Of a stretch of 64,000 nt of DNA, positions 3,460-59,560 are shown piece after piece. The stretch lies in contig JAVKGW010000004.1 of NCBI GenBank assembly GCA_031460175.1, positions 59,303 to 123,302 on the forward strand, in the 5' to 3' direction. Position 1 is the stretch's first letter. Each line of letters begins with the position of its first letter. The notes beneath the pieces were generated by a model. That model made no database searches, was not told the origin of the DNA, and worked only from the letters and a program-made list of their open reading frames with translations. Both the position numbers and the translations under genes were made by a program. Origin of the DNA: Candidatus Sysuimicrobium tengchongense (GTDB lineage Bacteria; Sysuimicrobiota; Sysuimicrobiia; Sysuimicrobiales; Sysuimicrobiaceae).

Positions 3460-4826
3460 CGACACCGCCGATCGTGGAGGTGGACCGGACCTGGGACGTG
3501 ATCGTGGTGGGCGGGGGCACCGCGGGGGCCATGGCGGGAATCGCGGCCGCCCGCATGAAGGCCCGCACCCTGGTGGTGGAGGCCTTCGGGTTTCTGGGCG
3601 GGACCGCCACGGGGGCCCTCGTCACCCCCATGATGCGCAACACCGCGGGCGGGGCGAACCTCAACCGGGGGCTCACGGAGGAGCTCAAGGCCCGGCTACG
3701 AGCCCGCGGAGATGCCGGGATCAGCCCCGACGGCAACGACAACTGGTTCAACCCCGAGGGGATGAAGTTCGTGCTGGAGGAGATGCTGCTCGAGGCCGGC
3801 GGGGAGGTGCTCTACCACACCCACTTCGTGCACCCGGAGGTGGAAGGGGGATGGGTGCACGGGATCCTGGTGCACAACAAGGGGGGGCTATGGCGACTGC
3901 GGGCCCGGGTGTTCGTGGATGCCACCGGGGACGCGGACCTGGCGGCGCGGGCGGGCGCGCCGTACGCAGGCGGGGATGAGGCCGGGGTCCACCAGGCGAT
4001 GACCCTCCGGTTCCACCTGGGCCACGTGGATCTATCCCGCCTCCACGACTTCCTTGTGGGGATCGGCATGCCGCAGCTGGGCCCGCGGTTCCTGCACCTG
4101 TGGATGGTGTGGGGCCGGGGCTCGCCGCTGGAACCCCTCTTCCGGCGGGCCGTGGAGGAGGGGGTGCTGCTCGAGCGGGACGGCGATTACTTCCAGGCCT
4201 TCAGCGTGCCCGGCCGGCCCGGGGAACTCTCCTTCAACTGCCCCCGCATCCGATCCGACCTCCACGACGGCACGGACCCCTGGCAGCTCTCGGCGGCCCA
4301 GGTGGACGGGCGCCGGGCCATCGAGCGGCTCGTGGCGTTTTGCCGTCGTTACCTCCCCGGCTGCGAGCACGCTTACGTGGTGATGGTGGCGCCCATGGTG
4401 GGCGTGCGGGAGACCCGGAGGATCGTGGGCGACTACGTGCTCACCCTGGAGGACATCCTCCAGTGCCGTACCTTCCCGGATGCCATCTGCCGCAACCATT
4501 ACCCCGTGGACATCCACCCGGTGCGGGGCGAGCGGCTCCGGTACGAGGACCGGGGGGAAGCTCCGTACTTCCGGCCCGAGGCCTACCATGAGATCCCGTA
4601 TCGGTGTCTGATCCCGCGGGGGCTGGAGAACGTGCTGGTGGCGGGGCGGTGCATCTCCGCCACCTTCGAGGCCCAGGCTTCCATCCGCATCCAGCAGAAC
4701 GCCCATGCCATGGGCCAGGCTGCGGGCGTGGCCGCGGCTCTCGCGGCCCTGCGGGGCGTGGGCGTGCGGGAGGTGGACGGCCGGGCGCTCCGGGAGCTTT
4801 TGCGGCAGCAGGGGGCGTACCTGTGA
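3456..4826 (+). CDS. FAD-dependent oxidoreductase (GIDA/FAD_oxidored-like Rossmann protein)
   Basis: The N-terminal dinucleotide-binding motif DVIVVGGGTAGAMAGIAAAR is present. The ATG at 3456 overlaps the permease stop (ATGA). The upstream part of ORF 2721..4826 is non-protein-like. Confidence 0.8.
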   Translation: MTTPPIVEVDRTWDVIVVGGGTAGAMAGIAAARMKARTLVVEAFGFLGGTATGALVTPMMRNTAGGANLNRGLTEELKARLRARGDAGISPDGNDNWFNPEGMKFVLEEMLLEAGGEVLYHTHFVHPEVEGGWVHGILVHNKGGLWRLRARVFVDATGDADLAARAGAPYAGGDEAGVHQAMTLRFHLGHVDLSRLHDFLVGIGMPQLGPRFLHLWMVWGRGSPLEPLFRRAVEEGVLLERDGDYFQAFSVPGRPGELSFNCPRIRSDLHDGTDPWQLSAAQVDGRRAIERLVAFCRRYLPGCEHAYVVMVAPMVGVRETRRIVGDYVLTLEDILQCRTFPDAICRNHYPVDIHPVRGERLRYEDRGEAPYFRPEAYHEIPYRCLIPRGLENVLVAGRCISATFEAQASIRIQQNAHAMGQAAGVAAALAALRGVGVREVDGRALRELLRQQGAYL

Positions 4827-8616: not shown

Positions 8617-8691
8617 TGGAGCCGGCGGCGGGATTCGAACCCGCAACCTGCGGATTACAAATCCGCGGCTCTTCCCTTGAGCTACGCCGGC
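8617..8691 (-). tRNA. tRNA-Thr (anticodon UGU), CCA encoded
   Basis: The reverse complement is GCCGGCGTAGCTCAAGGGAAGAGCCGCGGATTTGTAATCCGCAGGTTGCGGGTTCGAATCCCGCCGCCGGCTCCA. It folds as a cloverleaf with anticodon loop TTTGTAA. Confidence 0.85.
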
Positions 8692-9526: not shown

Positions 9527-11017
9527 TCAGTCCACGGCGGTGAGGACCGCCCACGCCAGATCGGGTTCCAGGTGCTCCTCCCGGTCGTCGATGCGCACCC
9601 GGATGCCCCCCTCGCGTACCTCCAGCACCTCGAGGCGGATTCCCGGAAGGACCCCCTTCTCGGATAGACGACGCAGAACCTCCGGATCCTCGTCCTCCAC
9701 CTCGAGGACGTCCACCACCTCCCCCTCCTGCCGTTCCATCAGCCGCCGGACCGGTTCGAAGGGTTCCCGGACATCTCTCGGAATGCGGGCACCGTGGGGA
9801 TCTCGAACCGGACGACCCAGGGCCTCGTCCAGCTCTGCCGCGAGCTCCCGGGGAGCTAGGTGCTCCAGGCGCTCCGCCTCCGCGTGCACGTCGGTCCACG
9901 GCACGCCCCCGCGGTCCACCAGGTACCGCTCCCACAGGCGGTGGGAGCGCACCAGGGCCACCGCCTGCTCCCGGCCCCGGGAGGTGAGCCGGACCCCACC
10001 GTCCCGCAGTTCCACCAGCCCCTCCTGCGCCGCCCGCCGGGCAAGGGCGAGCACCGCGGAGGGCGCAAGGCCGAGTCGCCGGGCCAGGAGGTCCACGGAG
10101 GCTCCTCCCCCGCGGTCCGCGAGGTAGGCCTGCTTCAACAGGTCCTCCCGCGCCACCCGCCGGGCGGCCTGACGTCGCCGCACCGCGTCCCACAGGACCC
10201 CCTCCCGCGGCCCCAGGAGCACGGCCAGGAGGAAGAGGACGGTGGCCACGAGCACCATGGTGGGGCCGGAAGCCACGTTCAGGTGGTAGGAGAGGTACAG
10301 GCCGCTCAGGCCGGAGACCACCCCCACCCCGACCGCCAGGGGGATCATGCGGGACATGCGGTCCGCCAGGAGGTAGGCGGTCGCCCCCGGTGTGATCAGC
10401 ATGGCCACCACCAGCACGATCCCCACCGCCTGCAGGGACGCCACGATGGTGACGGACAGCAGAAGCATGAGGGTGTAGTGGAGGGCTGCCACCGGGACCC
10501 CCATGGCGCTCGCCGCGGTGGGATCGAACGTCCACAGTACGAGCTCCTTGTAGAAGAGCGCCACCACCCCGAGCACCAGGACACCGGTTGCCGCGGTGAG
10601 CAGGAGGTCGACATCCGAGACGCCGAGCACGTTTCCGAACAGGATGTGGAAAAGGTCAATGGCGCGGCTGCGGATGCGGCTGATGAGCACAAAGCCCAGG
10701 GCGAAGGCTCCGGTAAACAGGATCCCCATGGCGGAGTCTTCCTTGATGCGGGTGTGCCGCTCCACCGCGGAGATCCCGAGCGCCGTCGCCATGCCCGTGA
10801 TCACCGCTCCCAGGAAGAAGGGAAGGTTCAGGAGGTATGCGAAGGCCACGCCAGGCAGCACCGCGTGGGAGACGGCATCCCCCAGCAGGGCCCACCGCTT
10901 CACCAGCAGAAAGCAGCTCAAAACCGCGCAGATCCCGCCCACCATCACCGCGGCCAGGAGGGCTCGCTGCATGAACGCGTACTGCATGGGGGCCACGAAG
11001 ATCTCGTGAAGGATCAT
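9527..11017 (-). CDS. Metal (Mn/Zn/Fe) ABC transporter permease fused to a C-terminal DtxR/MntR-like repressor (HTH + metal-binding + FeoA domains)
   Basis: The N-terminal ~290 aa are a typical ABC-3 permease (MQYAFMQRALLAA...LLGDAVSHAVLPGVA). The C-terminal ~200 aa read ...VDLLARRLGLAPSAVLALARRAAQEGLVELRDGGVRLTSRGREQAVALVRSHRLWERYLVDRGGVPWTDVHAEAERLEH...DPHGARIP... plus an SH3-like FeoA block. Confidence 0.8.
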   Translation of the reverse strand: MILHEIFVAPMQYAFMQRALLAAVMVGGICAVLSCFLLVKRWALLGDAVSHAVLPGVAFAYLLNLPFFLGAVITGMATALGISAVERHTRIKEDSAMGILFTGAFALGFVLISRIRSRAIDLFHILFGNVLGVSDVDLLLTAATGVLVLGVVALFYKELVLWTFDPTAASAMGVPVAALHYTLMLLLSVTIVASLQAVGIVLVVAMLITPGATAYLLADRMSRMIPLAVGVGVVSGLSGLYLSYHLNVASGPTMVLVATVLFLLAVLLGPREGVLWDAVRRRQAARRVAREDLLKQAYLADRGGGASVDLLARRLGLAPSAVLALARRAAQEGLVELRDGGVRLTSRGREQAVALVRSHRLWERYLVDRGGVPWTDVHAEAERLEHLAPRELAAELDEALGRPVRDPHGARIPRDVREPFEPVRRLMERQEGEVVDVLEVEDEDPEVLRRLSEKGVLPGIRLEVLEVREGGIRVRIDDREEHLEPDLAWAVLTAVD

Positions 11018-11772
11018 GGCGCCTCCCCCCCTCTCTGATGTGCGGCCTCCAGCAGGGTGAGACGGCCGCCGTAGGTGCGTTGCAGGAGCTCGGGAGTGAA
11101 GACCCGCTCGGGCGGCCCGTAGGCCACCAGCACCTGGTTGAGGAGCAGGAGGCGATCGAAGGCGGTCTGCGCCCGGCTGAGGTCGTGGGTGGCCACCACC
11201 ACCGTTCGTCCCTCCTGCTGCAGTCGGCGCAGCAGGACATAGATGGTTTCCTCCGTGGCCGCGTCCACTCCCACGAAGGGTTCGTCCAAAAGCAGCACCC
11301 GGGCCTCCTGGGCCAGGGCACGGGCGAGGAAGACCCGTTGCTGCTGGCCGCCCGAGAGCTGCCCGATCTGGCGATCCGCGAATCCCTCCATCCCCACCTG
11401 GCGCAGGGCCTCCCGGGCGATCCTCCGGTCCTCCGGTCCGGGCCGGCGGACCAAGCCCAGGTGGACGAACCGCCCCATGAGGACCACCTCCTCCACCACG
11501 ATGGGGTAGTCCCAGTCCACCTCACTGCGCTGGGGCACGTACGCCACGAGGCGTCGGGTCTGCGAGATGGGTTGGCCGAAGATCCGCACCGCCCCCGTGT
11601 CCGGCACGACCAGCCCCACCAGGGCCTTGAGGAGCGTGGACTTCCCGGCTCCGTTGGGGCCCACGAGGCCCACGAGGAGACCCGGCTCGATCTGGAACGA
11701 CACGTGGCGGACGGCGGGTTGCTCCCGGTAGGAGACCGTAAGGTTGCGAACCTCGATGGCCGGTCTGCTCAT
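11014..11772 (-). CDS. Metal ABC transporter ATP-binding protein (MntA/ZnuC-like)
   Basis: The Walker A motif GPNGAGKST, the LSGGQQQR signature and Walker B LLLDEP are present. There is a 4-nt overlap with the downstream permease. Confidence 0.85.
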   Translation of the reverse strand: MSRPAIEVRNLTVSYREQPAVRHVSFQIEPGLLVGLVGPNGAGKSTLLKALVGLVVPDTGAVRIFGQPISQTRRLVAYVPQRSEVDWDYPIVVEEVVLMGRFVHLGLVRRPGPEDRRIAREALRQVGMEGFADRQIGQLSGGQQQRVFLARALAQEARVLLLDEPFVGVDAATEETIYVLLRRLQQEGRTVVVATHDLSRAQTAFDRLLLLNQVLVAYGPPERVFTPELLQRTYGGRLTLLEAAHQRGGEAP

Positions 11773-12662
11773 CGCAGCGCCTCCACGATCGTCTTCACGT
11801 TGTGGCGCATCATCCCGATGTAGGTGTCCGCCCCCCTCCCCGCAGGTCCCAAGGAGTCCCCGTAGAGCTTGCCGCCGATGCGCACCCCGGCCTCCCGGGC
11901 CACCCGCTCCATGAGCTTGGGGTTGATGGTGGTCTCCACGAAGACCGCGGGAACCCGCTCCCGCCGGATGCGGTCTACGAGGCGCGCGATCTCCTGGGCC
12001 GAGGGCTCATCCTCCGTGCTGATCCCCCAGATGGTCCCCACCACCTGGAAACCGTAGCGATGCCCGAAGTACCGGAAGGCGTCGTGGGTGGTCACGAGTT
12101 TCCGGCGCGCGGGCGGGATCTGCTGGATCTGCTCCCGGATCCAGCGGTGCAGGCGTTCCAGCTCCTGGAGATACCGACGGGCGTTTGCCTCGTACTCCGC
12201 ACGGCCCGCGGGATCAAAGGCCACCAGGGCATCCCGGATGTTCCGGACGTACACCTGTGCGAACACGGGATCCATCCAGAGGTGCGGGTCGGGATCGCCC
12301 CGGTACGGGCCGGTCTCCTGGACGGCGGGCTGCAGGCCCCGGGTGGCCTCCACCAGGACGAACCTTCCGCCCGCGTTCTCCAGCAGCTTCTCCAGCCACT
12401 TCTCCAGCTTGAGGCCGTTGTAGACCACCACCTGCGCCTCCGCGATCCGCTGCACGTCCCGGGGAACGGGCTCGTAGGTGTGGGGGTCGGCGCCCACGGG
12501 GAGAAGGCTGCTGACCTCCAGGCGGTCTCCGGCCACCTGCCGCGTGAGGTCCGCGAGGATGTTGATGGTGGCGACCACGCGGGGTCTGCCCGATGCCGGA
12601 TCCGCCGCGGGCGCCGCGCAGGCGGCCAGGAGGATGGCGAGGAGGGGAAGGAACCGCCTCAC
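11769..12662 (-). CDS. Metal ABC transporter substrate-binding protein (TroA/ZnuA/MntC family)
   Basis: The GTG start at 12662 gives VRRFLPLLAILLAACAAPAA (a lipoprotein-like signal). The rest of ORF 11769..13250 upstream is low-complexity artefact. Confidence 0.85.
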   Translation of the reverse strand: MRRFLPLLAILLAACAAPAADPASGRPRVVATINILADLTRQVAGDRLEVSSLLPVGADPHTYEPVPRDVQRIAEAQVVVYNGLKLEKWLEKLLENAGGRFVLVEATRGLQPAVQETGPYRGDPDPHLWMDPVFAQVYVRNIRDALVAFDPAGRAEYEANARRYLQELERLHRWIREQIQQIPPARRKLVTTHDAFRYFGHRYGFQVVGTIWGISTEDEPSAQEIARLVDRIRRERVPAVFVETTINPKLMERVAREAGVRIGGKLYGDSLGPAGRGADTYIGMMRHNVKTIVEALR

Positions 12663-13312
12663 GGCACAGCCTCCACGAAGACGCTCTCCGCCACCCGCTG
12701 CCCGAGCCGCACCACGGACCCAGAGGGGAGCTGAACCTCCACCCGACCATCCGGGCGCCGTCCCAGAACCCGGGCCCGCCTGCCGGGAAGCAAGCCCAGA
12801 CCCGAGAGCTTCCGCAAGGTGCGGGCGTCGCTGTCCCGTACCCGGACCACGCACACGGGGCCCTCGAGGATCTCGCTGAGGCGGGGGAAGCGTCGTTCCC
12901 GCAGCTCCCCCTCGCGACTGGGGATGGGATCCCCGTGCGGATCCACCGCGGGGTCGCCCAGGGAGGCCGCGATGTGCTCCTCCAGGAGCTCGGAGAGCAC
13001 GTGCTCCAGCCGCTCCGCCTCCCCGTGCACCGCCTCCACGGGGAGGCCCAGACGGTCCGCCAGGTATCGCTCCACGAGCCGATGGTGCCGGATCACCTCC
13101 AGGGCTGCCCGTTCCCCCTTCGGGGTGAGCCGGACCCCGCGATACGGGGTGTGGGTGACGAGGCCCCGGGCGCTCAGGCGCTTGAGCATCTTGGTGACGG
13201 ATGCCGGGGCCACCTTCATGCGCCGGGCGATGGCGTTGGTGCTCACCCACCCGCTCTGCCCCAGCTTGTAGATGGCCTTCAGGTAGTCCTGGACGGCGGC
13301 GGTGGTGGCCAT
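12659..13312 (-). CDS. DtxR-family metal-dependent transcriptional repressor (MntR/SirR-like, with C-terminal FeoA domain)
   Basis: The HTH reads AIARRMKVAPASVTKMLKRLSARGLV and the metal-site blocks RHHRLVERYLADRLGL...EAERLEHVLS are present. It overlaps the binding-protein gene start by 4 nt. Confidence 0.85.
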   Translation of the reverse strand: MATTAAVQDYLKAIYKLGQSGWVSTNAIARRMKVAPASVTKMLKRLSARGLVTHTPYRGVRLTPKGERAALEVIRHHRLVERYLADRLGLPVEAVHGEAERLEHVLSELLEEHIAASLGDPAVDPHGDPIPSREGELRERRFPRLSEILEGPVCVVRVRDSDARTLRKLSGLGLLPGRRARVLGRRPDGRVEVQLPSGSVVRLGQRVAESVFVEAVP

Positions 13313-13323
13313 GGATCCTCCGG

Positions 13324-13343
13324 AATTTAGCTTATGCTAAATT
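13324..13343. promoter_or_regulatory. Candidate DtxR/MntR operator: inverted repeat AATTTAGC-TTAT-GCTAAATT
   Basis: There are 8-bp perfect arms with a 4-nt spacer. The site lies between the -10 box and the start codon of the repressor-led operon. Confidence 0.5.
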
Positions 13344-13356
13344 CGCCCAGGCTAAA

Positions 13357-13384
13357 ATTATAGCACACGTCACCCACCCCCCAA
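13357..13384 (-). promoter_or_regulatory. Promoter of the mntR-like operon: -35 TTGGGG, 16-nt spacer, -10 TATAAT (minus-strand sense)
   Basis: The reverse complement of 13357-13362 is TATAAT and that of 13379-13384 is TTGGGG. This is an AT-rich island within a GC-rich genome. Confidence 0.45.
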
Positions 13385-13396
13385 GGACAGCCAGGA

Positions 13397-14356
13397 CTAC
13401 GGGGAACCGGAGTCCTCCCCGGGCCCGGGGTCGCCCCGCGAGGGGACGGGCGTGCAGCGGGGGCAGGTGGGGCCGCACGGCTCCACGTGGATGGTGATGT
13501 CCGTACCGGGCAGTTCCTCCCGGATGTCCTCCTCCAGGTGATCGCAGAGGGCGTGGGCTTCCCCCACGGAGAGGGTTCGGTGGAGGACGAGGTGGAGGTC
13601 GAGGAAGCGTTGGGGCCCTACTCTGCGGGTCCGCAGGGCGTGGTAGTCGAGGATCTCGTCCCGGTGTGCCTCGAGGATGGCCCGGATCCTGGCCTCCTCC
13701 GGCTCCGGAAGCGACCGGTCCATGAGGCCGCCGAGGGCTTCCCGGTACACCCGCACGCCCATTGCCACGATGTTCAGGCCCACGGTCCCGCCCACCACAG
13801 GATCCAGCCACACCACGCCCGTGAGCCAGACCAAGCCCACGCCTCCCAGGGCCGCGAGGGAGGTCAGGACGTCCGCCAGCAGGTGCCGGGCATCCGCCTC
13901 CAGGGCCAGGGACTCCACCTCGCGGGAGACGCGCAGGAGGAACCGGGCGGTCAGGTAGTTCGCGAGGGTCGCGATGGCCACCAGGCTGAGCCCCCAGTCC
14001 AGGGCCTGGAGGGGCACGGGACGCAGGAGGCGTCTGAAGGCGGTGATCACCACCCATGCCCCGGTCACGGCCACGAGGGCCCCTTCCGTGGCCCCGCTGA
14101 TGTACTCCGCCTTCCCGTGGCCGTACGGGTGCCCCGCGTCCGGAGGCCTTGCGGCCACGGCCAAAGCCACCAGGGCGATGTTCGCCGCCACCACGTTCAC
14201 CACGGACTCCGCGGCATCCGAGAGAAAGGCCACGGACCCCGTGAGGAGGTAGGCGGCGGCCTTCAGCCCCAGGATCCCCACGCTCACGCTCACGGAAACG
14301 AGGGCGGCCCGCAGCGGCGTCGCCCGGTGGCCCGGGCTGGATGGAGGAGGCAACAT
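13397..14356 (-). CDS. Cation diffusion facilitator (CDF) family divalent metal efflux transporter
   Basis: The translation has six TM segments and a C-terminal cytoplasmic domain, and resembles CzcD/MntE-type proteins (...DAAESVVNVVA...HPYGHGKAE...). Confidence 0.85.
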   Translation of the reverse strand: MLPPPSSPGHRATPLRAALVSVSVSVGILGLKAAAYLLTGSVAFLSDAAESVVNVVAANIALVALAVAARPPDAGHPYGHGKAEYISGATEGALVAVTGAWVVITAFRRLLRPVPLQALDWGLSLVAIATLANYLTARFLLRVSREVESLALEADARHLLADVLTSLAALGGVGLVWLTGVVWLDPVVGGTVGLNIVAMGVRVYREALGGLMDRSLPEPEEARIRAILEAHRDEILDYHALRTRRVGPQRFLDLHLVLHRTLSVGEAHALCDHLEEDIREELPGTDITIHVEPCGPTCPRCTPVPSRGDPGPGEDSGSP

Positions 14357-14419
14357 CGTCCTATGCCAGGGGGCGCGTGCGGTCCGGACTCCTCCGGGCG
14401 CCAGGGGAAAAAGCCCGTG

Positions 14420-15475
14420 CTACAGCCACACCAGCCCCGCAATTCGGCGCCAGCGGCGGTCCAGCCGCCACAGCCCGGCCTCCCGGGCGTAGCGGTAGGC
14501 CTGCTCCAGCTCCTCCGGGAAGATGCGGCGGTTGATGTCCCGGTACTTCGGGTCCGTCTTCGCCTTCCACGCAGGATGGTACTGGTCCATGACGTTCACG
14601 TAGGTGTCCCGAGACAGCCGCCCCAGCCAGCGCAGGATTTCCCGGGTGTCCTCCAGCATGCCCGGCATCACCAGGTGCCGCACCAGCAGACCCCGCAGGG
14701 CGATCCCGTCCTCGTCCACCGTGAGGTCCCCCACCTGGGCGTGCATGGCGGCGATCACCTGCCGGGCCACCTCCGGGTAGTCGGGAGCAAGGAGGTAGCG
14801 CCGGGCCCGCTCCCGGTCCCACAGCTTGAAATCGGGCATGTAGATGTCCACCACCCCGTCCATGAGCCGGATGGAGTGGAGACTGTCGTAGGCGCTGGTG
14901 TTGTATACGATGGGGAGTCGCAACCCCTTCTCGATGGCGTACGGAAGGGCCTCGAGGATCTGCGGCACCACGTGCTCGGGGGTCACGAGGTTGATGTTGT
15001 GGCAGCCCAGCTCCTGCAGCCGCAGCATCATGGCCGCCAGTTCCTGAGGCGTCACATCCACCCCTTCCCCGATCTGGCTGGTCTCGAAGTTCTGACAGAA
15101 GACGCATCTCAGGTTGCACCACGAGAAAAAGATGGTCCCGCTTCCCCGCCAGCCCCGCAGCACGTCCTCCTCCCCGAAGTGGGGGAAGAAGGCGGAGACC
15201 CGGGCGTATCGGCCCACCCGGCACACCGCGAACCGGTTCTCCAGGCGGTTCGTGTGGCAGTTCCGGGGGCAGAGCGTGCAGTCGCGCAGGGCCTCCAGGG
15301 CCTCCTCCACCTTCTCCCGCAACCGCCCTTCCTCGTAGGTCCGCAGGTAGGCGGGGGTGAACTCCCGGCGCACGAACCGGCCGTCTCCGTGGACCTCCCG
15401 GGGAATCCCACGCTGTGCGAGCAGCACGTCAACCCCTCCCCTCGCATTCTCCGCGGATCTGAACCCCCGGGGCAA
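14420..15475 (-). CDS. Radical SAM protein, PflX-like (homolog of pyruvate formate-lyase activating enzymes, COG1313-type)
   Basis: The translation shows a CNLRCVFC (CxxxCxxC) cluster motif, GGE-like residues and a length of about 350 aa. Confidence 0.75.
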   Translation of the reverse strand: MPRGFRSAENARGGVDVLLAQRGIPREVHGDGRFVRREFTPAYLRTYEEGRLREKVEEALEALRDCTLCPRNCHTNRLENRFAVCRVGRYARVSAFFPHFGEEDVLRGWRGSGTIFFSWCNLRCVFCQNFETSQIGEGVDVTPQELAAMMLRLQELGCHNINLVTPEHVVPQILEALPYAIEKGLRLPIVYNTSAYDSLHSIRLMDGVVDIYMPDFKLWDRERARRYLLAPDYPEVARQVIAAMHAQVGDLTVDEDGIALRGLLVRHLVMPGMLEDTREILRWLGRLSRDTYVNVMDQYHPAWKAKTDPKYRDINRRIFPEELEQAYRYAREAGLWRLDRRWRRIAGLVWL

Positions 15476-38501: not shown

Positions 38502-38577
<76 letters not shown>

Positions 38578-50580: not shown

Positions 50581-50655
50581 TGGTCGGGGCGGCCGGATTT
50601 GAACCGGCGACCTTCGGCTCCCAAAGCCGACGCGCTGCCCCTGCGCCACGCCCCG
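50581..50655 (-). tRNA. tRNA-Pro (anticodon UGG), C1:G72, CCA encoded
   Basis: The reverse complement is CGGGGCGTGGCGCAGGGGCAGCGCGTCGGCTTTGGGAGCCGAAGGTCGCCGGTTCAAATCCGGCCGCCCCGACCA. Confidence 0.8.
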
Positions 50656-57116: not shown

Positions 57117-57608
57117 TTACCCGCGGCGGCGCTTAGCGCTCAGGGCTTCCAGGAACTCCTCGTGCCGCACCTCGTCTGCCAGGAGCTCCGTGGCCAACTG
57201 GTAGGTGACGGGGTCCTTCCCGAAGGTCAGCTTCGCGAGGCGGTTGTAGACCTCGATGGCCTGCCGCTCTGCCCGGAGCTGGTCCTCCACCATCCCGTCC
57301 GCATCCGACCAGTCCCCCCGGGGAGCCGTCCACGGGGCGTTCGCGCCGGCCTCCCAATCCTTGGGATGCACCACGGGGTCGCCCCCCAGCTCCACGATGC
57401 GAAGGGCCAGCTTCTTTGCGTGCTCCAGTTCCTCCCGGGCCTCCTGCTCGAAGTGCTCCACCAGCTCCTCCCCGTGCCACCCCTCCGCCACCTGCGCGGT
57501 GAGCCAGTACGAGTAGAAGGCGAGGAGTTCGTCCAGGTACGCCCTCTTCAGTTCCTGGACGAGCTGCTCCACATCCAGCTCCACGATGGCGCGACCTTTC
57601 TGTCCCAT
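57117..57608 (-). CDS. dps: Dps family protein (ferritin-like DNA-protection protein)
   Basis: The translation reads ...FYSYWLTAQ...HFEQEAREELEHAKKLALRIVELGGDP...ELLADEVRHEEFL. Confidence 0.7.
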   Translation of the reverse strand: MGQKGRAIVELDVEQLVQELKRAYLDELLAFYSYWLTAQVAEGWHGEELVEHFEQEAREELEHAKKLALRIVELGGDPVVHPKDWEAGANAPWTAPRGDWSDADGMVEDQLRAERQAIEVYNRLAKLTFGKDPVTYQLATELLADEVRHEEFLEALSAKRRRG

Positions 57609-57682: not shown

Positions 57683-58387
57683 TCAGGTCCTGTCACGGAG
57701 GTGGTCCAAGAGCCGCATCAGGACCTCGCAGTCCTGGCACTCCGGATGGCCCGGAGGGAGCGTGGGGCGCGTCAGAATCTCCCGGGCCCGGCGCAGGAGG
57801 GGCGGGATGATGCCCTCGGGATCGAGACGAACCCGCCGACGAACTGCCCGAAACAGGAGCGCCACCCGGGAACCATCCCGGGTCGGGTGAAACCGCCGGG
57901 GCTCCAGGTACACCAGGGAGAGGCCGGAGAGGGGCGTGTAGCCCAGGCGCTCCGCGATGTACGCGTACCCGTTCAGTTGCACCTCGTAGGCGGCAAGGGC
58001 CCACTCCTGGCTTTCCGTGAGCCGAGCGGTCTTGTAATCCACGATGTGATACGAACCGTCCGCCAATCGGAAGATCTCGTCGGGCTCCCCCCGGAGCACA
58101 AGGCCCAGGCGGCGATCCTCCACCTGGAACACCTGCCACCGGAGCCGATGCGGGGCCACATACCCCACCACCCGGCCCAGCCGGGGAAACCAACCGGGCA
58201 GCGTCCCGTGCCGGTCCACGTGGTCCCGGATGACCTGCTTGGTGGCCCGGTCGATCTCGCCCAGCACTCCGGGGAAGGGCATCTGGTAGGGGACCGGCAG
58301 GTGGTACGTGATCCAGAAGCAACGGGGGCAACCTCCCTCCGTCACCTCCGCCAGGCGCCGCACGGAGATCCGGATCGGCCCGCGCAT
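57683..58387 (-). CDS. PD-(D/E)XK nuclease, RecB/Cas4-like, with 2+2 Cys (CPRC...CQDC)
   Basis: The active-site-like residues ADGSYHIVDYKTARL (D...DYK) and the Q..Y motif QEWALAAYEVQLNGYAY are present. The ATG at 58387 is preceded by GGAGGAGG. The ORF-track TTG start is at 58432. Confidence 0.6.
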   Translation of the reverse strand: MRGPIRISVRRLAEVTEGGCPRCFWITYHLPVPYQMPFPGVLGEIDRATKQVIRDHVDRHGTLPGWFPRLGRVVGYVAPHRLRWQVFQVEDRRLGLVLRGEPDEIFRLADGSYHIVDYKTARLTESQEWALAAYEVQLNGYAYIAERLGYTPLSGLSLVYLEPRRFHPTRDGSRVALLFRAVRRRVRLDPEGIIPPLLRRAREILTRPTLPPGHPECQDCEVLMRLLDHLRDRT

Positions 58388-58480
58388 CCCCCTCCTCCGC
58401 CCGTGCCAAAATTCGAACGCCTGTACGTCCAAATTTTCTCCAACTCTGGCCAGGGTTCCTGCTGGGAGATTCCTGGCGGG

Positions 58481-59560
58481 TCAGGGGCGGGCGGACCGGA
58501 CGAACCGGTGCAGGCGGCGGAGGGCCTCGAGGCGCTCGGTTTCTCCCGTACGGGCACGGCGCAGGGCGTCTTCCAGCACGGCCACGGTGCGGTCGTAGGT
58601 GGGCCGATCCACGGGATAGGGATGGCCGTCCTTTCCGCCGTGGGCGAAGCTGTAGCGGGCCGGATCCCGCCACGAGAGCGGGGTGCCTGCCAGGAGCTCC
58701 GAGAGCAGCGCGAGGGCCCGCAGGGTCTTTGCCCCGAGACCCGGGATCTCCAGAAGGCGCTCGAAGTCCGGAGCCTGAGCCTCGTACGTGCGGAGGAGGA
58801 CGGTGCGCAGTCGTCGGGGGTGGACATCTTCCGGCCGCAGCGCGTGGCGTGCAGGCATCGCCAGAACCCGCGGGAACTCCCGCAAGATCCGCTCTGGGTT
58901 CGCCCGGGCCAGGTCTGCCACCGCCTCCCGGACGGGCTGGGCCTCCTCGGCCACCAGGTTGAGGGTAGGGGTTTGCACATCGCAGCACACCGCGGCGTGG
59001 GGCTCGCACACGAATGACCGGACCGTCTCGCCCAGCCAGTGATACCGCCGGGCGGTGCGGTCTTGAGGGCGCATCCCCTGCTGGATGACGGCCCAGGACC
59101 CATCCAGCGTGGCAAAGAGGGTGTGGTGGTAGAGCTCGTAGCCGTCCTGGACCGCACTGCTGTCCACCTTGGCAGAAAGGCGGCTGCAGCGGGTCAAGAC
59201 GTCCCCGTCCACCCCCAACCGGTCGCCGTAGTGCCGCACTTCCTGCGGGGTGGCCCGGGCGGCTCGTCCCTTGCCCCCGGCCACGAGGAGCCCCAGGTCC
59301 TTCTCCGCGCCCCGCACCGCTTCCTTGAGGGCCCCGCACACGGTGGTGGTGAGGCCGCTGCTGTGCCAGTCGAAGCCCAGTAGACACCCGAAGGCCTGAA
59401 ACCAGAACGGATCGCTGAGCCGGCGCAGCACCCCCCGGGGGCCGATGTCCTCCACCAGGGCCGCAAGCACCGCCCGGCCGAGCCGCACCATGCGCGCGAA
59501 CAGCCACCGGGGGACGGAGCCGGAGTGGAGGGGGAGGATCGCGGTCCCGGTCCGGCGCAC
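58481..59560 (-). CDS. Conserved hypothetical protein with an HhH-like motif (possibly DUF763 family; recalled, not verified)
   Basis: The ORF is 359 aa and contains LLEIPGLGAKTLRALALLSELL. It lies immediately upstream of the nuclease and is co-directional with it. Confidence 0.5.
   Translation of the reverse strand: MRRTGTAILPLHSGSVPRWLFARMVRLGRAVLAALVEDIGPRGVLRRLSDPFWFQAFGCLLGFDWHSSGLTTTVCGALKEAVRGAEKDLGLLVAGGKGRAARATPQEVRHYGDRLGVDGDVLTRCSRLSAKVDSSAVQDGYELYHHTLFATLDGSWAVIQQGMRPQDRTARRYHWLGETVRSFVCEPHAAVCCDVQTPTLNLVAEEAQPVREAVADLARANPERILREFPRVLAMPARHALRPEDVHPRRLRTVLLRTYEAQAPDFERLLEIPGLGAKTLRALALLSELLAGTPLSWRDPARYSFAHGGKDGHPYPVDRPTYDRTVAVLEDALRRARTGETERLEALRRLHRFVRSARP

Follow-up and report, generated by a model that had tools for sequence, protein, structure and literature searches.

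We have analyzed a 64-kb stretch of DNA from Candidatus Sysuimicrobium tengchongense (contig JAVKGW010000004.1, positions 59,303 to 123,302; hereafter the window, meaning the whole stretch), and specifically an AT-rich island that separates a cation diffusion facilitator (CDF) exporter gene from a metal-uptake operon headed by the gene for a repressor of the DtxR/MntR family. The free repressor gene is the first gene of the operon and lies directly behind the island; it is followed by genes for a metal-binding lipoprotein, an ATP-binding cassette (ABC) transporter ATPase, and an ABC-3 permease to which a complete DtxR-like module is fused (Table 1). The four genes overlap successively by 4 nt, which argues for a single translationally coupled operon; a radical-SAM gene lies further upstream of the CDF gene on the same strand. 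Pfam places three domains in the repressor, Fe_dep_repress (a winged helix-turn-helix), Fe_dep_repr_C (dimerization and metal), and an FeoA/SH3-like domain, and its closest homologues (94%, 86%, and 82% identity) come from metagenome-assembled genomes of Armatimonadota.

The initial annotation, made from the sequence alone, had described an AT-rich island of 84 bp in DNA of about 70% GC, situated between the CDF gene and an mntR-like operon and containing a minus-strand TTGGGG-16 nt-TATAAT promoter, with a perfect 8+4+8 inverted repeat between the -10 hexamer and the start codon. Base composition, gene coordinates, and direct reading of the sequence bear out each of these statements. The GC content of the island is 0.50–0.54 in 80-nt windows, as against about 0.72 in the flanks and 69.8% for the entire window, and only two stretches of 40 nt in the window have a GC content of 40% or less, the island itself and a second one at 58408-58447. 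The -10 element matches the consensus at all six positions and carries the TG extension, and TATAAT occurs just twice in the window, both strands counted together. We predict a transcription start site at approximately 13350–13352, from the conventional distance between a -10 element and the start. A promoter and terminator scan detected no terminator within the CDF/mntR spacer, and the 3′ region of the CDF gene (13385-13430) folds with z=+0.5, that is, with no significant terminator structure; we accordingly gave up the notion that transcription terminates between CDF and mntR. We note that read-through could link the radical-SAM gene to the CDF gene and possibly also to the mntR operon.

The organization of the repeats is different from that first proposed. 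It had been suggested that the palindrome overlaps the TATAAT hexamer, but the perfect repeat (box 2), whose arms reach 9 bp (13323-13331 and 13336-13344) around a 4-nt center, sits 13 nt downstream of it, and it is instead an imperfect repeat (box 1) that takes in the final 3 nt of the -10 element as well as the predicted start site. Nor are there one and a half sites, as had been supposed; there are two full boxes, which overlap in AATT and have a center-to-center offset of 15 bp. In the sequence GCTAAAATTATAGC, previously read as a partial half-site, GCTAAAA is indeed part of a site, being the outer arm of the complete box 1, whereas TTATAGC is the -10 hexamer plus its TG. In the coordinates of the predicted transcript box 1 would extend from about -8 to +12 and box 2 from about +8 to +28. 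The box can be written as AATTTAG-N6-CTAAATT; its core, TTTAG-N6-CTAAA, is present exactly in box 2 and with three mismatches in box 1. The boxes are thus placed over a promoter, with box 1 on the -10, box 2 following it, and the genes of a metal ABC importer downstream, the transcription start being a predicted one.

Table 1. Features of the promoter-operator island, the adjacent genes, and the tRNA genes of the window (coordinates are those of the window)
Feature	Coordinates	Strand	Remarks
CDF/mntR spacer	13313-13396	read on -	84 bp, from the CDF stop codon to the ATG
-35 element TTGGGG	13379-13384	-	3/6 consensus match; read directly
Extended -10 element	13357-13365	-	TG 13364-13365, C, TATAAT 13357-13362; read directly; 16 nt from the -35
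Box 1 (imperfect)	13340-13359		AATTTTAGCCTGGGCGAATT; minus strand AATTTTAGC-CTGG-GCGAATT; 3 mismatches to the box pattern
Box 2 (perfect palindrome)	13324-13343		AATTTAGCATAAGCTAAATT; AATTTAGC-ATAA-GCTAAATT; 0 mismatches
Shine-Dalgarno GGAGG	13317-13321	-	4 nt 5′ of the ATG
Start codon (ATG) of the DtxR-family gene	13310-13312	-	
DR2539-type DtxR/MntR-family repressor	12659-13312	-	217 aa; Pfam, NCBIfam, PDB 8pvt
ZnuA/TroA-fold cluster A-I metal substrate-binding lipoprotein	11769-12662	-	Pfam/NCBIfam
ABC transporter ATPase, MntA-like	11014-11772	-	Pfam/NCBIfam
ABC-3 permease with a fused, complete DtxR-like module	9527-11017	-	Last gene of the operon; YtgC-YtgR-type architecture
CDF exporter	13397-14356	-	Best NCBIfam model MntE; directly upstream of the operator
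CDF stop codon	13397-13399	-	
tRNA gene	8620-8691	-	Rfam
tRNA gene	38505-38577	-	Rfam
tRNA gene	50584-50655	-	Rfam

Within the window these two boxes stand alone. A search with the 20-mer pattern and up to three mismatches returns only the two overlapping sites, and the same pattern gives no match in 100 dinucleotide-preserving shuffles; with the 18-bp core the two sites have 0 and 3 mismatches, and the next best in the 64 kb has 5. The window contains 13 perfect 8+4+8 inverted repeats, among which box 2 is the sole AT-rich one (20% GC, with 65–90% in the others). A search for additional copies of the palindrome had been proposed, for example upstream of the CDF gene; none is present in the window with fewer than five mismatches, and the best candidate in the short stretch that separates the CDF gene from the radical-SAM gene (14357-14419) is a five-mismatch site at 14408-14425.

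The 217-residue repressor is the presumed binder of both boxes, as judged from its sequence and its structural relatives. Its best match in the PDB is DR2539 of Deinococcus radiodurans (8pvt, E=7e-50), aligned without gaps over residues 5–139 at approximately 65% identity, a value that covers the domains for DNA binding and for dimerization; M. tuberculosis MntR, ScaR, IdeR, and DtxR follow. The query for this alignment lacked Met1 and residue numbers there are one below those of the real protein; the ligand mapping is given in true numbering, and a DR2539 residue number equals the window number plus two. DR2539 has been crystallized with Mn on the box ATTTTAGTCGCGCCTAAAAT of the dr1709 (mntH) promoter, its binding requires a divalent metal and is abolished by EDTA, and its specificity derives from Ala37, Pro38, and Ala39, which face thymine methyl groups, and the wing residue Tyr59, which enters the minor groove (bioRxiv 10.1101/2024.02.12.579695). 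In electrophoretic mobility shift assays DR2539 binds the mntH promoter in a Mn- or Fe-dependent manner, and it has a lysine where Bacillus subtilis MntR has Glu11 (PMC3327659).

All 14 of the DR2539 metal ligands are present in the window repressor, including four primary ligands (Asp/Glu/Glu/His), six ancillary ones, and the four residues of the 'tertiary' Mn site (E72, H76, E108, and E111). This last site has been regarded as a peculiarity of Deinococcus (bioRxiv 10.1101/2024.02.12.579695), and we note that it occurs outside that genus too. Nearly all of the DNA contacts are kept as well, with the VAPASVT reading head, the Ser, Thr, and Arg/Lys contacts, Tyr10 (Tyr12 in DR2539), His54, and the wing residue Tyr57 all in place. 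The only notable change is at the fifth residue of helix alpha3, which is Gly43 in DR2539 and Lys41 in the window repressor.

Comparison with orthologous promoters provides an independent view of the same sites. A profile scan of GTDB genomes gave no close relative (best 63%); orthologous loci were taken instead from exact-protein look-ups (L081-L088), and one more (L198) came from a metagenome scan. The repressors of L081-L088 are 69–94% identical to that of the window and the operon is the same in these loci and in L198; the upstream neighbor varies among CDF, radical-SAM, and divergently transcribed methyltransferase-like genes. All of these promoters retain the -35 and -10 elements together with the two boxes and diverge elsewhere, such that the aligned upstream regions show conserved blocks at CTTGAC (-35), TAnAAT (-10), TTTAGC, AAwTTwGC, and GCTAAA, and vary in the box centers and in the stretch from box 2 to the start codon, where there are indels of 10–20 nt. 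A broader alignment of the double box, which also takes in the distant Armatimonadota-type loci L001, L003, L004, L138, and L163, extends without gaps across 12 promoters and yields the consensus ATTTTAGCCnGGGCTAATTTAGCCTnGGCTAAATC, the invariant positions being TTTA, AA, TT, C, and AA; the left arm of box 1, TTTAG, is unchanged throughout the set.

The distant loci show that the same promoter and box module can precede other genes. In L003 (3600-6700) and L163 (4958-8843) the module lies directly after a CDF gene that is 66–72% identical to that of the window, and the arrangement of CDF gene and then boxes is likewise seen in L138 (1380-1546, a short contig) and L004 (3600-6633). The -10 of L003 and L163 (TATGAT or TACGAT) runs into box 1, with TTGACx 16–18 nt upstream, and the operon that follows contains, as checked with Pfam, genes for a two-domain multicopper oxidase with a Tat signal and for a ZIP-like transporter, together with an mntR-like gene; these genes may serve oxidase-dependent uptake of Mn or Fe under the same type of repressor. 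The operon downstream in L001 has yet another order, substrate-binding protein, ATPase, two permeases, and mntR.

The box accompanies mntR-like genes outside these relatives, too. Scanning GTDB representative genomes with a profile gave 80 loci, spread over many phyla, that contain such genes, and in these we searched the 130 nt upstream of each gene for the relaxed core TTTAG-N6-CTAAA with no more than one mismatch. There are 32 matches, distributed over 28 of the 80 loci, as compared with 14 in the remaining 852 kb of DNA, a difference in density of approximately 190-fold; moreover, several of these 14 precede a transporter operon that contains mntR (L001, L003, L004, and L074). AT-rich composition can be controlled for by permuting the half-site, and each of 19 other permutations gives at most three matches, as does each of the other spacer lengths from 2 to 10. 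We therefore take the box to be a specific site through which this subfamily of repressors is widely autoregulated. In many phyla it lies at varying distances from start codons. In a group of actinobacterial loci from Solirubrobacterales and related organisms (L006-L013, L030, L036, L064, L065, L071, and L078) a variant box, TTTGGCATGCCATAAT, recurs about 30–50 nt before the mntR-like start codon, and its right arm doubles as a -10 element (CATAAT), a tighter overlap of operator and promoter.

The tandem-box pattern was also sought in metagenomes, where at least 120 loci matched. Among the matches listed, 113 have a GC content of 0.52 or less and no adjacent homologue of the window operon proteins; we take these to be chance matches, the tandem pattern being too AT-rich to be specific, and the scan was dropped as a means of defining a regulon. 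The seven high-GC loci among the matches listed comprise three with related mntR genes (L138, L163, and L198), two that lie before ArsR-like genes (L150 and L175), and two that are unexplained. In L150 (about 4161-4191) and L175 (1548-1578), where the GC content is 0.6–0.7, TTTAGC-N6-CTAAATTAGC-N6-CTAAA lies just upstream of genes whose translated N-termini look, on visual inspection, like those of ArsR/SmtB proteins; other winged helix-turn-helix regulators would thus use similar dyads.

Gene context, the phylogenetic footprint, the family-wide association of the box, and the structural homologue constitute four independent lines of support for the same interpretation, namely that the island is very probably where promoter and operator of a self-regulated metal-uptake operon come together, with the metal-loaded 217-residue repressor as the protein that binds it. 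The autorepression of a metal-uptake operon by a DtxR/MntR-type protein, as envisaged in the initial annotation, is thus upheld by evidence of several kinds. In a metal-replete cytoplasm the repressor would fill its primary, ancillary, and tertiary sites, most probably with Mn2+ (Fe2+ or Zn2+ being the alternatives), and become competent to bind DNA. One dimer would occupy each 20-bp box, giving probably two dimers in total, which the 15-bp separation of the box centers would put more or less opposite each other around the helix. The dimer at box 1 would lie over the last part of the -10 and over the predicted start site, that at box 2 over the region from about +8 to +28, and together they would keep RNA polymerase from binding, from forming an open complex, or from leaving the promoter. 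The bound repressors would also obstruct transcription reading through from the CDF exporter gene upstream, a roadblock role made possible by the position of the operator directly after that gene with no detectable terminator between. When metal is scarce the repressor would be released and the operon, including its own gene, would be transcribed. Classical metal-dependent autorepression through promoter occlusion is in our assessment the best-supported mechanism.

Several observations weigh against this interpretation, or at least against its details. The consensus promoter scanner did not call the island promoter, because the -35 fits the consensus at only 3/6 positions, and TTGGGG is indeed a weak -35 element. 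The three mismatches of box 1 all fall within its inner arm. With no further copies of the box in the window, a regulon could not be defined from it. The substitution of Lys41 for Gly43 means that the base preference of the repressor may differ in detail from that of DR2539, and the ArsR-like genes behind similar tandems indicate that the DNA motif is not in itself diagnostic of the protein that binds it.

One must also ask whether a different protein uses these sites. The initial annotation had named both DtxR-like proteins of the operon as potential binders, and the permease-fused module, freed by proteolysis in the manner of YtgC-YtgR, might occupy the operator alone or in addition to the free repressor. 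The module shares 43% identity with that protein and has kept the HAEAERLEH and DPHG metal motifs, and the permease fusion is conserved in all of the close orthologues (L081-L088 and L198); there is moreover a precedent in Chlamydia, where YtgR, once cut away from YtgC, acts as a repressor at the ytg promoter (PMC5599777). Its DNA-binding surface, however, is altered. The module has no counterpart of the wing tyrosine (Tyr59 in DR2539, Tyr57 in the free repressor), the reading head APASVTKMLKR has become APSAVLALARR, and the phosphate contacts Ser-Thr-Gln/Asn are replaced by Ser-Val-Asp, and with several contact residues lost it is unlikely to be the binder. The free repressor, with the full set of DR2539 DNA contacts, is encoded directly behind the operator, and L003 and L163 have the same tandem boxes and a free mntR-like gene, with no match to the permease part of the fusion in the locus DNA searched. 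We therefore consider binding by the fused module improbable, and of the two proteins named the free repressor is the favored candidate. As a separate matter, the fused module may be a membrane-tethered metal sensor and not a DNA-binding protein. The boxes might also be bound by a regulator encoded elsewhere, of the ArsR/SmtB type or with some other winged helix-turn-helix, or the AT-rich tract might be promoter architecture resembling an UP-element or discriminator, with no operator function. In favor of these readings, similar tandems stand before ArsR-like genes in two unrelated high-GC contigs, and AT-rich promoters are conspicuous in any genome of 70% GC. Such explanations sit poorly with the finding that permuted half-sites and other spacers are not enriched upstream of mntR-like genes, that the box accompanies these genes through many phyla and differing downstream operons, and that a homologue of 65% identity has been crystallized on such a box, and we regard them as very improbable.

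A palindrome located just 5′ of a Shine-Dalgarno sequence might alternatively act in the leader RNA as a hairpin that influences mRNA stability or translation or forms part of a riboswitch, and not as a protein-binding site in DNA. The predicted leader hairpin has an energy of -16.3 kcal/mol (z=-2.6), with an equally good fold in 5 of 200 shuffles. However, a search of the region against Rfam gave no family at E≤1, and in the window as a whole only the three tRNA genes reach the gathering threshold, with no Mn (yybP-ykoY) riboswitch among the hits. Among the 12 promoters pairing of the arms is 77.1% versus 75.1% after shuffling, a value equaled by 62–134 of 500 shuffles, and changes in one arm mostly occur without compensation in the other. 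What is conserved is the half-site sequence, including that of box 1, which is at or upstream of the predicted start of transcription, and the distance from box to start codon varies in many phyla. The absence of an RNA family match and of covariation argues for a DNA operator, and we think it extremely improbable that the palindrome functions as RNA.

Returning to autorepression by the free repressor, the metal that it senses is difficult to assign, and we lean toward manganese. Asp9 and Glu100 of the repressor take the place of the Met and Cys ligands of DtxR and IdeR, the repressor is homologous to DR2539, the neighboring CDF protein is MntE-like, and it is among Mn-binding proteins (MntA, PsaA, YfeA, and MntC) that the binding protein has its best structural matches. 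Other observations detract from this assignment. DR2539 itself is activated by several metals in vitro (PMC3327659; bioRxiv 10.1101/2024.02.12.579695). In the binding protein a histidine replaces Glu205 of PsaA (in TTHDAF), giving a His-His-His-Asp site like those of TroA and AztC and unlike the His-His-Glu-Asp site of PsaA, and the protein scores about equally on the AztC (Zn) and MntC models. The multicopper oxidase and ZIP pair of L003 and L163 would suit iron uptake as well, which counsels against a firm assignment of Mn. An attempt to assign the metal from the binding protein was set aside as ambiguous, the Mn-type structural matches standing against the His3Asp site and the AztC score.

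A more elaborate version of the proposal, which we consider doubtful, can be formulated from the sequence comparisons. In Armatimonadota a fixed module of promoter and tandem boxes would be placed after the CDF gene and before whichever importer operon the lineage has (ABC, or multicopper oxidase and ZIP), the repressor would both occlude the promoter and act as a roadblock that makes importer expression independent of read-through from the exporter gene, and the permease-fused YtgR-like sensor would gate transport post-translationally. If this were true, the module would be a compact three-level metal homeostat of a kind undescribed for the DtxR family. For autorepression as such, our understanding of DtxR-family regulation is unchanged, and the locus is a clean and ordinary example of it; what is modestly new is the lineage-conserved double box with its 15-bp offset, its position after a CDF gene, and the presence of a free repressor beside a permease-fused DtxR-like sensor. 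The analysis also provides a precise operator model for a DR2539-type sensor, TTTAG-N6-CTAAA in tandem at a 15-bp offset, in a poorly studied and uncultured phylum. Use of the box extends far past Deinococcus, to Actinomycetota, Chloroflexota, Armatimonadota, and further phyla, and because of this spread the motif should be usable for annotating Mn/Fe regulons in metagenome-assembled genomes.

The second AT-rich stretch, at 58408-58447, is on the minus strand an imperfect palindrome, AAAATTTGGACG-TACAGG-CGTTCGAATTTT. It includes CGAAC-N4-GTACG, which resembles a Cheo/LexA box, and is flanked by a DUF763 gene (58481-59560) and, on the other side, by a gene for a PD-(D/E)XK nuclease (57683-58387), beyond which is a ferritin-like gene (57117-57608). 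To judge from its sequence it could be an SOS-type operator.

The island and its repressor can be compared with several characterized systems. In DtxR and IdeR, two dimers bind each operator on opposite faces of the DNA, and the operator overlaps the -10 and transcription start. The window repressor belongs to the same family, has the same fold, and is likewise metal-activated as a type, but in an alignment to 1fx7 the ligands Met10 and Cys102 of the Corynebacterium DtxR/Mycobacterium IdeR pair correspond to Asp9 and Glu100, and the 19-bp iron box (TTAGGTTAGCCTAACCTAA) differs from the boxes described here both in sequence and in half-site spacing; the two dimers share one 19-mer there, whereas here they are predicted to occupy two partly separate boxes. 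An iron-type DtxR/IdeR sensor with its cognate box was thus rejected on the Asp/Glu ligands and the differing box. The MntR proteins of B. subtilis and Escherichia coli are Mn-responsive repressors of Mn importers that act at AT-rich dyad operators in promoters. They match the window repressor weakly (E of about 1e-13 to 1e-14), and have two domains with no SH3/FeoA-like domain, which the window repressor has; in addition Glu11 of the binuclear site in B. subtilis MntR corresponds to Lys12 here. The presence of Lys12 and of the FeoA/SH3-like domain led us to discard a two-domain MntR of the B. subtilis type.

The metal specificity of Treponema TroR is debated. In the troABCDR operon, as here, a DtxR-family repressor is encoded together with a cluster A-I ABC metal importer, and the His-His-His-Asp site of the binding protein is like that of Treponema TroA (1toa, which is among its structural matches). 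One published account (PMC2628430) describes the tro operator as about 18 bp of dyad symmetry at a sigma70-like promoter, and on that account the placement of the operator is alike too. The two differ in that the repressor gene is last in the tro operon and first here, and in the sequence of the operator. The ytgABCD operon of Chlamydia shares with the window a metal ABC operon in which an ABC-3 permease has a C-terminal DtxR-like module (YtgC-YtgR). To our knowledge Chlamydia has no separate free DtxR-family protein, whereas the window has a free DR2539-type repressor, and the fused module here has lost several DNA-contact residues.

The nearest parallel is DR2539. The two proteins have the same three domains, all of the metal ligands, a lysine where MntR has Glu11, and the same reading head (VAPASVT) and wing tyrosine, and both systems have a metal importer as the target of repression, by prediction in the case of the window. 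The boxes, ATTTTAG-N6-CTAAAAT in D. radiodurans (within ATTTTAGTCGCGCCTAAAAT) and AATTTAG-N6-CTAAATT here, have the same half-site and the same spacing, and the conserved T's of TTTAG in the two boxes correspond to Thy4 and reverse Thy16 of the DR2539 complex. The differences lie in residue 43 of DR2539, a glycine there and a lysine (Lys41) here, in the phylum of the host, Armatimonadota in the present case, in the target, which is mntH there and the repressor's own ABC transporter operon here, and in the operator, for which a single box has been described in D. radiodurans and two overlapping boxes 15 bp apart are found in the window.

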